Positions 4,017 through 15,119 of a DNA stretch of 40,721 nucleotides are shown here, one piece after another. Origin of the DNA: a bacterium (lineage in GTDB: Bacteria; Patescibacteriota; Dojkabacteria; JAKAPS01; JAJZLI01); NCBI GenBank assembly GCA_021846685.1, contig JAJZWL010000007.1, positions 1 through 40,721 of the forward strand. The letters run 5' to 3'. Within the stretch, counting starts at the first letter, position 1. Every line of letters starts with the position of its first letter. Both the position numbers and the translations under genes were made by a program. A model generated the notes under the pieces. It did not search any database. It saw only the letters and a program-made list of their open reading frames with translations, and was not told where the DNA came from.

Positions 4017-7000
4017 TTATTGTATTACAACATAATTCCAAGAATAAGTACTGTTCTGCTCTGGTGCTTTTGTAAAGTTTATGCTAAATCCTGTTGTAGT
4101 TTCAGATACATATACACCAAGATTTGAAGCTCCTGTGAGGGCATTATTAGGAGTAATTATAACAATTGGAGTCATCTTATATGGTGAAGTGAATTTCAAA
4201 TTAAACTGATTTCCTAATGCAGGAGAAGATCCCGTAGTAAGAGTAATATTCCCTGATATATCAGTTGATCCTGCAGTTAAAGTTGTAGTAGCTCCTGTTC
4301 CTGAAGAAGCAGTTGGAGATATTTTTGGAAGTACACCAATTGGGACTATATGGCCTGCTATTAAAAAATCCCCTGTTATATCGAGTGTTCCTGATATATT
4401 AGTATTCCCAGTTATGTTTAAATTCCCATTACTACTCATACTAAGTACACTCATGACTCCAGAGGAGGACATTATTGGATTATAGTATTCATTTTTTACT
4501 AACATCAATATTTTACCTCTGAGATAAGTTTTGCCATTATATGTAAAGGTACTTGCTCCAGGTGTACTAGAAGAAAGAGAATTTAATGCCATTCCGACTA
4601 CTTGCCCAGGAGATGTTGCATCCTGCCCATATCCTGAAAAGATTGAGCCTGTTATCATATCCCCTGTATTAATTGCACCATTAAAATTTGTAACCTTTAC
4701 TAATACTCTCCCTGCAAGTGCTAAAGGAATCGACCCTGGTAAATATTGTTGATGTAAAGTAATTCCAGGATTCGTGGATATTACACCAAGGGTATTTTGA
4801 GAATACGGATGTGTAGTAGGAATAGCTACAAAATTGTTTATACTGTTTGAAGCAGAGTGTGTGCCACTAATACTTACTACATCCGCGGCAGAGGCACCAT
4901 TTGAACCTATTACATTTTCTGCAAGATCTGCTGGTATTCCTCCAGTTGTAATAGATCCTGCAAAGATAGCATTACCATATTTATCAAGAGAGAATATATC
5001 TTTGTAATTACCACTAATATTTGATGATATAGTAAAATCTCCAGGAGATGTAGAATGTGTTAATAGAGAAGAATAATATACTGTTGATACATTACCACTA
5101 TTATTCTGTCCTCCTATCTCATATACATACCCGTTGTATTCTACTGATGTGCCCCAACCTGTAGCAGCTGGCAGAGAACTCGTGGATGTCCAAGACCCTA
5201 GTGTTCCATTACTATTGATAGGGGCATAATCTACTGTCGAGACATAAGCATTACTACTGTTCTGTCCTCCTATCTCATATATATATCCATTGTATACTAT
5301 TGATGTGGCATCCCGGATAGCTACAGGAATGGATGTTGTGGCTGTCCATGCTCCTAGTGTTCCATTGCTATTGATAGGGGCATAATCTACTGTGGAGACA
5401 GTAGAGCTACCGTTCTGTCCTCCAATCTCATACACGTATCCATTGTACTCTACCGATGTGGCTTCGCTTGTAGCTACAGGAATGGAGGTCGTGGATGTCC
5501 ATGTTCCTAGTGCCCCATTGCTATTGATAGGGGCATAATCTACTGTGGAGACAGTAGAGCTACCGTTCTGTCCTCCTATCTCGTATACATATCCATTATA
5601 TTCTACTGATGTGGCCTGAAATGTAGTTTGTGGAAGAGAGGTTGTGGATGTCCATGCTCCTAGGGTCCCATTTCCATTGATAGCTGCATAATATACACTC
5701 GACAAATAACCACTACTGTTGGATCCTCCTATCTCATACACGTATCCATTGTATTCTACTGATGTGGCATAATCTGCTGCCACAGGAAGAGATGTTGTGG
5801 GTGTCCAGGATCCTAGTGTTCCATTTCCATTGATAGCTGCATAATATACTGTCGAGAGCCAATTACTTCCACTATACCCCCCTATCTCATACACGTATCC
5901 TCCATATGTCACAGAGGTTCCCGCTGATATCCCAACATTTGCAGTATTAGCTGTTGGGGGTGCTGTACTTGTTGTTGCAACTGAGCCTGAATCTGTATAG
6001 GTAACTGTAGTGCCTCCTGAAACTGATGCAAGAAACTTTTCTCCTCCTGAACTTGTTCCTTTATATATGTTATACCCCGTTGCACCTGTGTCCTGTGTCC
6101 AAGACAGTGCTATTGGATATGCTGTCGTTCCTTCTGCAGCCGATACCTCATTTGACACTGTTGTCTCTCCTGCAGTAGTTGTTGCTGTTATTTCATAATA
6201 ATATGTTGTTGAAGCTGCAAGATCTGCACCTACCGTACCTGATGTTCCCACTGCTGCTGCTAATCCAGATGGTACAGATATCAAAGGAAATGGGGTTGTT
6301 GAAGGCCAAGATGAAATTGCAGGATTTGGAGTAGAGTTATAGTTGTTTTTTCCAAAATTTAAACTAAATCCAGAAGATTGAATATCTAAAGGAGAAGCTG
6401 CAGTTATTAATGTATTACTCGGATTTGTAAGATTTATAGCTCCTCCAAAATTACTAGCCCCTTGTACTGATAACCCTCCTCCTATATTCATATCCCCCGA
6501 CAGATTTATATTTCCTCCATTATTCTGTGCTGTCTGAAGATTTGTTAAAACACTACCTTTAGTATTTTGAGATAATCCACCCTCTTTTAGTGCTTTAAAA
6601 TAATATACTGTCGATACAGTTTCACTGCTATTACCATTAACCCCGCCTATTTCATATGCATAGCTATTGTATACTACAGTAGTAGCATTTCTTATGGGAA
6701 CTGGAAGAGAGGTTGTTGCTGTCCAAGGACCCAAAGAGCCATTGCTATTGATTGGTGCATAATTTACTGAAGAATAAGCTGTGGATCCTCCACTACCTCC
6801 TCCTATCTCATATATATATCCTCCTGATTCTACAGTAGATTGAGAAGAAGAGATTCCTATATTGGGTAATGAAGATGTGGTTCTCCATCTGCCAATAGTC
6901 CCATCAGTGTTGATTGGTGCATAATACACTGTTGTTAATGCAAGGTTAGTTCCATAACTGAATCCCCCAACTACATATACATATCCATTGTATGTAACTG

Positions 7001-15119: not shown

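Follow-up and report, generated by a model that had tools for sequence, protein, structure and literature searches.

Probable nested insertion of a strand-permuted, fibronectin type III-like module into its own homologue and into Kelch propellers of a giant Dojkabacteria protein

The alpha-I (von Willebrand A) domain of integrins is the classic insert between the blades of a beta-propeller, and it is found in the alpha subunits of some paralogues only. We analyzed a giant-protein gene of a Dojkabacteria bacterium (contig JAJZWL010000007.1 of assembly GCA_021846685.1, positions 1 to 40,721; this stretch of 40,721 nucleotides is called the window) in which one module of 112–114 amino acids, module A, occurs six times in frame (336–342 nt per copy). 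Three copies, named K1–K3, lie in Kelch propellers. The other three, B1–B3, are nested in a second module, B. Like the integrin domain, A appears to be a self-folding domain with adjacent termini in an inter-blade loop, and there are paralogues with it and without it. The integrin case differs in propeller type and insert fold, and in being eukaryotic, ancient and single-copy.

In a recent survey, domain insertion occurs in 20% of multidomain proteins, nested cases are known, and inserts need close termini (median 14.3 Å vs 29.8 Å; PMC13114784). The locus resembles the insertions described there (A1-B-A2, nested A1-B1-C-B2-A2) in its compact insert of about 114 amino acids, the need for close termini and the possibility of nesting. 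The accessible part of the survey makes no mention of Kelch or propeller hosts (PMC13114784). In RrgA, the pilus adhesin of Streptococcus pneumoniae, domain D3 is inserted in D2, and D2/D3 in D1 (PMC5333627). As in RrgA, sandwiches of a surface adhesin are split Russian-doll fashion and the host halves reassemble around the insert, although here the adhesin role is putative and the reassembly is seen in models only. The RrgA inserts have different folds, occur once each and are isopeptide-locked (PMC5333627). Here, in contrast, one module with 76–87% DNA identity occurs six times, in its own homologue as well as in a propeller, and close relatives have empty sites. No description of this architecture was found in the literature on Kelch and giant surface proteins of Patescibacteria or on permutation, insertion and nesting of fibronectin type III (FN3) domains, of which our coverage was limited. 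What is unusual here is a strand-permuted FN3-like insert with a return linker, nested in its own homologue, with the same module in Kelch junctions. It is also unusual that relatives keep empty sites and a further nesting state.

We consider it probable that the locus arose by nested domain insertion, and that the insert spread passively as repeats within the gene converted one another or recombined unequally. A would be an insertion-ready FN3-like domain, with its F-G hairpin between strands A and B and a trailing linker of about 20 residues. It would occupy two types of loop. The first is the G-to-B connection of its homologue B, which would be old and conserved across the family. The second is the junction from strand 4 to strand 1 of Kelch blades, which would be lineage-specific and was seen in this genome (G000) only. 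Homologous recombination between the repeats of the gene would both spread the copies and keep them alike, with no mobility function of A itself.

A repeat search of the gene grouped the six A copies into one six-member family. A tblastn-type search of the whole 783-kb genome recovered them at E values of 2e-63 to 8.7e-45, far past chance, together with weak matches on the C-half of host B3 (one) and in a second giant gene on contig C29 (three). The original prediction had placed six copies at these limits, three splitting a Kelch repeat and three splitting module B, and both searches agreed with it exactly. It had also called the copies very similar in DNA, which is right as to their relatedness and overstated as to its degree. 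Pairwise identity among them is 76–87% for nucleotides and 78–92% for amino acids, synonymous divergence (dS) is 0.43–0.89, and the ratio of nonsynonymous to synonymous divergence (dN/dS) is 0.115–0.25, with a median of 0.18. These values make the relatedness of the copies plain and point to purifying selection, but fall short of near-identity.

The K inserts are preceded by W-x3-TP(F/L)PL and followed by N(I/V)G....TSV. This insertion point is the strand 4-to-strand 1 junction of a Kelch blade, whose uninterrupted form reads W-TTSLPx....ATSV. The B-type copies separate PTGL..YYYEVVA..GQSFPS from TTNTN..L.W..GA..Y.IYRS. In the nested unit B3(A), the order is the N-half of B (strands A, F and G), module A, a Ser/Thr/Pro return linker and the C-half of B (strands B, C, C' and E). 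The limits of the A cassette, ISxPSGL ... TNTA, are the same in the two unrelated host contexts.

A and its host B are homologues, both predicted to be FN3-like sandwiches with the permuted strand order A-F-G-B-C-C'-E, a relationship that goes beyond the original prediction. They have in common an N-half, P(S/T)GL .. G..L...TYYYx(V/I)xA .. G(E/Q)S..S..V, and a C-half, ..L(S/T)W..V.GA.(G/S)Y.IY(R/K) .. T.SYTD. When compared with Pfam, residues 19–47 of A fell on positions 54–82 of the 84 in the fn3 profile (E-F loop, strands F and G), and residues 45–88 on positions 8–50 of the 95 in GH85_C (strands B, C and C'). Since the F-G-like part precedes the B-C-like part, the deduced order is A, F, G, B, C, C', E, in which the F-G hairpin has been relocated to follow strand A and precede strand B. 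Neither the order of the Pfam segments nor the order of strands in the models follows the canonical FN3 order A-B-C-C'-E-F-G. Like FN3 (PF00041) and GH85_C (PF21910), the modules have a strand B-C motif, LSW..GATGY.IYR, and an F-G motif, YYY.V.A..GES..S, and they superpose partially (Z 4–5.3). Unlike in PF00041, F-G lies between A and B, and the full-length sequential matches are to 9vel_C, 7qok_A and latrotoxins instead. The PF00041 match, at profile positions 54–82, scored 15.5 bits against a gathering score of 25 (E 0.021). The B3(A) unit reached the gathering score of PF21910 (32.5 bits against 27); its best stretch was the C-half of B on profile positions 11–57 of 95, half of the profile.

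Canonical FN3 domains have their termini at opposite poles, and A appears to solve this by strand permutation and a return linker. The module ends in a Ser/Thr/Pro stretch of about 20 residues (..SVATTSTTPPTTNTA). With seven antiparallel strands, the chain would exit the sandwich at the pole opposite its entry, and the linker would bring it back to the entry point, a geometry that we deduce from the strand count. Since both ends of A plus linker would then meet, A could sit in a loop.

The second giant protein of this genome, of about 1900 amino acids, is encoded outside the window (C29:14180-19894; loci L007, L008 and L010). Its order is IPT-like repeats, a permuted FN3-like module with uninterrupted N-half and C-half, about 12 Kelch blades, and a module reading C-half, Ser/Pro linker, N-half. 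The module behind the Kelch array is a circular permutant of A, in which the linker is the internal E-to-A connection. The claim that A never stands alone thus holds within the gene studied here and fails beyond it, because an uninterrupted module of this type is present on C29 and A-like modules in plain tandem are present in a relative.

The Kelch and B contexts were folded separately with AlphaFold, because MAFFT misplaced Kelch rows on FN3 columns. In what follows, G001 and G002 are genomes of the same genus, G003–G005 and G007 are other relatives, P numbers are database proteins, and P0001 is the 3700-residue protein itself. The alignment for the K2 propeller (A3) had 21 rows, namely K1, K2, K3, seven uninterrupted propellers that begin with blade 2, and eleven modules of type A. 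The alignment for B3(A) (A1) had 12 nested units from G000, G001, G002 and G005.

The K2-propeller model had a mean predicted local distance difference test value (pLDDT) of 85.9 and a predicted template modelling score (pTM) of 0.76. Module A forms seven strands in it (residues 58–64, 79–87, 93–95 and 99–102, 110–115, 122–128, 135–141 and 147–150), followed by a coil (residues 151–174; pLDDT blocks 84 and 65). The remainder of the model superposed on Keap1, KLHL12, KLHL2, KLHL3 and designed six-bladed Kelch proteins at a Z of about 36 (270 residues, root-mean-square deviation 1.9 Å, model positions 12..431). The host propeller of K2 is predicted to be complete, closed and six-bladed around its insert.

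The B3(A) model had a pLDDT of 87.3 and a pTM of 0.73, with blocks of about 70–93 in both halves of B. In an exhaustive VIA search, the inner A (model residues 49–155) matched the SPO1 capsid protein 9vel_C at Z 10.6 (106 residues, root-mean-square deviation 2.5 Å) in one sequential range. It also matched the crAss001 muzzle protein 7qok_A (Z 9.0, 106 residues) and latrotoxins (Z 7.3–8.1), again sequentially. Seven strands are present in both models; canonical FN3 domains gave Z 4–5.3 over 58–66 residues, which is within the range of common arrangements. Many FN3 rows of the VIA output covered the B3(A) model from 1 to 212 with about 58 aligned residues, so that residues of the N-half and C-half of B fell together on one FN3 domain. 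In both models A is a self-contained domain, inside a closed Kelch propeller and inside B respectively, with the A1-B-A2 insertion topology. These models, together with natural empty sites, bear out the in-frame insertion into two kinds of host that had been proposed. Ordinary tandem domains with no empty-site alleles, the finding named in advance as decisive against it, were observed in neither respect: the models nest, and relatives carry empty sites.

An empty B was found in P0145, where residues 775–881 are uninterrupted (..SFPSEYISISVPTGSSNEVSLTWN..) and align with a clean gap across A; the alignment of parts of P0058, P0008 and P0145 (A4) served only to show this site. The region of P0001 from residue 2209 to 2960 has co-linear counterparts in two genes of G001 (L028 and L029) and one of G002 (L030), each with B(A), a six-bladed propeller, the conserved spacer and the next propeller. 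The K2-equivalent junctions of L028, L029 and L030 read through without insert (for example ..TWNTTTPLPQVTWGAASIEY..), and so do the K3-equivalent junctions (..SSWPTTTVLPTATYDATSVEY..). All 6 junctions examined in these three genes of two congeneric genomes are therefore empty. The K1-equivalent junction is empty in the orthologue-like P0058 (1622 amino acids), which shares the N- and C-terminal regions and has one B(A) and no Kelch insert.

B(A) units are more widely distributed. G001 has six, G005 three, and G002 and G004 one each, the G004 unit being truncated where its contig ends; they are also present in P0008 and P0058. Matches to A were obtained in 8/8 other genomes of the family and in 11 of the 41 genomes searched, G000 included. 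The Kelch-A-Kelch arrangement was not found in loci of the 40 other genomes, in 58 metagenome loci or in the best 150 of 5441 HMMER hits. The HMMER query was blade1-A-blade2, searched against 1.84 billion representatives at E ≤ 0.001, and the best 150 hits were inspected. The 58 metagenome loci, obtained with a B(A) profile, are all distant (≤ 58% identity, short segments) and mostly tandem FN3-like arrays, and are not informative on nesting. P0003, P0018, P0019 and P0078 gave long alignments and were considered as full-length Kelch-A-Kelch proteins; they are pure Kelch arrays without A motifs and were rejected. As B(A) is present in five genomes of the family and Kelch(A) only in G000, B(A) is old and Kelch(A) lineage-specific as far as sampled. 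Recency of all six copies is not supported, given the conservation of the B(A) unit across the family.

Kelch(A) could instead be ancestral, the relatives having lost A by precise in-frame deletions while G000 keeps the old architecture. We regard this as unlikely. In its favour, the K copies are not especially recent (dS from the closest other copy 0.43–0.45), repeat recombination can delete as readily as it inserts, and only a handful of close relatives can be compared. However, the six K2- and K3-equivalent junctions and the single K1-equivalent junction in P0058 are all empty, and the K arrangement occurs in 0 of the best 150 HMMER hits and in 0 of the loci from 40 other genomes. In addition, dS among the G000 copies is lower than that of unique orthologous regions between G000 and G001 or G002 (0.87–1.44), and the K copies carry a derived F-G loop tract, TTAGET instead of TPNGE.

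A third nesting was seen in relatives: the N-half of B, the A core without linker, five to six Kelch blades, the Ser/Thr/Pro linker and the C-half of B. By its sequence, a whole propeller seems to separate the A core from its return linker, all of it within B; the original prediction did not include this state. A two-chain prediction of P0005, with residues 90–250 (N-half of B plus A) against 548–613 (C-half of B), gave weak support with a score of 0.54 (0.53–0.55 in three runs). The best of 3 controls was 0.00, the pLDDT of the partner was at least 70, and at least 94% of contacts agreed. In the calibration, the mark was reached by 51/78 solved complexes and by 2/108 mismatched pairs; scores of 0.60 or under comprise 5 of the 78 solved complexes and all 4 passing mismatches. 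The prediction gives a hint that the two halves of B in P0005 rejoin around the propeller. G005 has A-like modules in a simple tandem arrangement, after B and ahead of the first Kelch blade (L032, residues ~1720–1830; L033, residues ~510–635). One of them has no return linker, and the other has a linker and extra Cys residues. They may be intermediates between the tandem and inserted forms.

The six copies are mosaic. The pairwise homoplasy index (PHI; own implementation) was 0.348, against a permuted mean of 0.456 (sd 0.014), and 0/5000 permutations reached it. Among 80 informative sites in the six DNA copies, the commonest splits track position along the gene: {K1, B1, B2} versus {B3, K2, K3} has 10 sites, {K1, B1} 9, {B2, B3} 8 and {B3, K2} 7. 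The split of K from B copies has 8 sites, all in nt 87–120 (TTAGETTVSN versus TPNGE(S/T)TVS(S/N)). This tract is the F-G loop, which reads TTAGET in the K copies and TPNGE in the B copies of G000, G005, P0005 and P0008. The whole-module tree groups K1 with B1 (support 98/95), K2 with K3 (93/93), the six G001 copies together (100/97) and the three G005 copies (94/98). Such a tree is the pattern of concerted evolution. These comparisons indicate that the A copies exchanged sequence by recombination or gene conversion, in agreement with the route of spread first suggested.

The K copies share their direct flanks, cca-ttt/cta-cct-ttg before and aat-rtk-ggg after, unlike uninterrupted junctions. 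Around K1, the end of blade 1 (..HINTNGSVGSW) and the start of blade 2 (..YVYEIGG) are of the sequence type of the K2 and K3 propellers, and the remaining blades of the K1 propeller belong to a different type (..YVYVMGG .. APLLSGGGVG). This pattern would fit the transfer of A, along with some 20 flanking codons, into the K1 site on a conversion tract. DNA identity of the short K1 flanks did not single out K2 or K3 as the donor. We infer a single origin of the K-type copies. In the topology deduced above, the K-specific F-G loop would lie at the pole of both chain ends, facing the host, and selection for host contact could explain why this loop alone resisted homogenisation. A more detailed scenario, to which we give a little under even odds, is that a strand-permuted FN3 domain turned, thanks to its return linker, into a general-purpose plug-in for loops, that in this lineage gene conversion carried it from the old FN3-in-FN3 setting to the Kelch junctions, and that only the host-facing F-G loop was K-specific thereafter.

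Assembly or reading error offers a second alternative: a repetitive gene could have been assembled into a chimera from metagenome reads, or ordinary tandem domains could have been mistaken for nested ones. The sequence comes from a metagenome bin of 29 contigs, and assemblies break at giant repeat genes; in G001, G002 and G004, every orthologue is cut off by a contig end. We nevertheless consider such an error very improbable. The open reading frame is uninterrupted across 11.1 kb, and no two A copies share an exact stretch of more than 66 nt. Public reads from 5 runs of 2 studies matched, and four runs of one study were compared as short Logan contigs. With 0 differences, Logan contigs (three to four runs, one study) bridge the K1 3' junction at 13116 (12591–13239) and the K3 5' junction (6096–6328), as well as the junctions of B1, B2 and B3. 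Among the pieces listed, none bridges either K2 junction. B(A) nesting in this order is also seen in four further genomes and three database proteins. The order N-half, N-half, C-half, C-half is unreadable as tandem domains, and the models close both hosts. Precise removal of A was seen in 0 of the 15 joints listed (of 44), which has no bearing either way, as contigs cannot reveal rare variants. With their short sides and a very high depth in run X3, these joints resemble other Kelch genes.

Least credible is a reading of A as an element that moves autonomously within the gene, or as a segment cut out of the mature protein in the manner of an intein: its identical boundaries in two unrelated hosts (ISxPSGL ... 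TNTA) and lineage-specific presence at three sites would suit this, but each copy is an in-frame 336–342 nt with a predicted FN3-like sandwich fold, dN/dS of about 0.18 implies selection on the encoded protein, neither terminal repeats, direct or inverted, nor a target duplication occur at the 12 junctions, and no transposase, reverse transcriptase or homing endonuclease is present among 28 neighbouring open reading frames (Pfam, E ≤ 1e-5). Inteins begin with Cys, Ser or Thr, end with His-Asn, are followed by Cys, Ser or Thr at +1 and have a Hint fold. Each of the six copies begins with I or V and finishes with ..NTA, and thus has neither the N-terminal Cys/Ser/Thr nor the C-terminal His-Asn; position +1 holds N after K1–K3 and T after B1–B3. 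The mobile cassette of the original prediction is retained in the passive sense and not as an autonomous element, for which enzyme, terminal repeats and target duplication are missing. Post-translational excision, which it had also raised as less likely, is not supported, given the missing intein residues and the predicted FN3-like fold.

Several observations weigh against nested insertion with passive spread as described above. The whole-module tree places K1 with its neighbour B1 and away from K2+K3, so that support for a single K-type origin comes down to 8 sites and a small number of flanking codons; apart from these codons, the flank analysis did not identify the K flanks as one another's nearest blades. 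The permutation is read from weak Pfam matches (E 0.02; 15.5 bits against cut-offs of 25–27). A Foldseek search of B3(A) against the PDB gave nothing at E ≤ 0.001, with weak FN3-tandem matches only. Both folding alignments are shallow (12 and 21 rows), and many rows are paralogues. The nearness of the A ends and the propeller face are deduced from strand count and host closure. The K type is carried by one genome only, and relatives may have lost A rather than G000 gained it. Finally, the matching Logan runs come from one study and may include the source sample, so they are not independent.

We infer that the A copies give an adhesin additional domains that project from it and serve for binding or as spacers. 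Finished proteins often contain inserted domains, yet intermediate states are seldom preserved. Here one module occupies two unrelated host folds within a single gene, and relatives have empty sites and a third nesting. If nested insertion is correct, empty B, B(A), B(A + whole propeller) and Kelch(A) would form a natural series for how insertions arise and are tolerated. The series bears on how an FN3-type fold, with ends at opposite poles, is made insertable, on how propeller loops tolerate a 114-residue insert, and on how recombination in repetitive surface-protein genes creates architectures in Patescibacteria. It may then also show how ultra-small episymbiotic bacteria diversify their attachment proteins, and it could guide protein engineers toward loop-insertable binding scaffolds.

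Table 1. Positions of the giant-protein gene, the six A copies, their hosts and the third nesting of relatives. Residues of the first thirteen rows are those of P0001.
Feature	Residues	Window positions	Strand	Context or basis
Giant-protein gene	3700 amino acids	4017..15119	minus	single open reading frame (open reading frame list, translation)
A copy K1	556-668	13116..13454	minus	between blade 1 and blade 2, first six-bladed propeller
A copy B1	1010-1121	11757..12092	minus	nested in FN3-like host B1
A copy B2	1306-1419	10863..11204	minus	nested in host B2
A copy B3	2261-2374	7998..8339	minus	nested in host B3
A copy K2	2483-2596	7332..7673	minus	between blade 1 and blade 2, six-bladed propeller
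A copy K3	2947-3060	5940..6281	minus	between N-terminal closure strand (..SSWPSTTPFPL) and blade 1, last propeller
Nested unit B1(A)		11592..12263	minus	alignment
Nested unit B2(A)		10698..11357	minus	alignment
Nested unit B3(A)		7833..8489	minus	alignment and AlphaFold model
Six-bladed Kelch propeller hosting K1	497-915	12375..13631	minus	sequence, blade count; aligned with K2 propeller
Six-bladed Kelch propeller hosting K2	2430-2862	6534..7832	minus	AlphaFold model
Kelch propeller hosting K3	2932-3345	5085..6326	minus	sequence, blade count, alignment
Third nesting, L034 (G003)	~395-860
Third nesting, L035 (G007)	~385-900
Third nesting, P0005	90-613
Third nesting, P0049 (fragment)	~20-170

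The protein begins with a signal-peptide-like segment in its translation, followed by an N-terminal region, Kelch propellers alternating with FN3-like B(A) units, and a conserved C-terminal domain of about 330 residues. It is probably a secreted, cell-surface giant, as judged from the predicted layout. When the whole protein was compared with Pfam, only Kelch families passed their cut-offs (PF24681, 159.8 bits against 50; PF01344, 149.3 bits against 20.1), and the sub-threshold set included GH85_C. The C-terminal region (window positions 4017-5000, residues ~3380-3700) is conserved as ..ADLAENV.. GVIST.P .. ALAGRV.VKV .. GD.IT.S .. and, with the thresholds applied, matched no Pfam family. The pure-Kelch giants P0003, P0018 and P0019, of 5000–6500 residues, close with these motifs too, and the region may serve all of them in anchoring or maturation. 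Low-complexity Asn/Gly/Ser spacers (..QNNGGN.N.. GG.S..G..) follow each propeller and also occupy window positions 9000-9800 (residues ~1780-2190). They are kept in G001 and G002 and were used as co-linearity anchors.

The metagenome bin has a completeness of 92.8%. G+C is 0.37–0.40 in the giant gene (window positions 4001-14000) versus 0.24–0.32 in the flanks, which is probably due to the Gly/Ser/Thr/Tyr-rich repeats rather than to foreign origin. The neighbouring genes are ordinary bacterial ones, including sigma-70, FtsK, an FtsA-like protein, MetRS, adenylate kinase and toxin-antitoxin pairs. Toxin-antitoxin-type genes lie at window positions 1774-2507 and 21828-22938; they comprise a PIN-domain protein with a small upstream open reading frame, and a BrnT-family toxin near a RelB-family antitoxin. 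At window positions 25757-27798, a 7TM_transglut membrane protein is followed by an ATP-grasp protein (ATPgrasp_ST) fused to a putative zinc protease domain.

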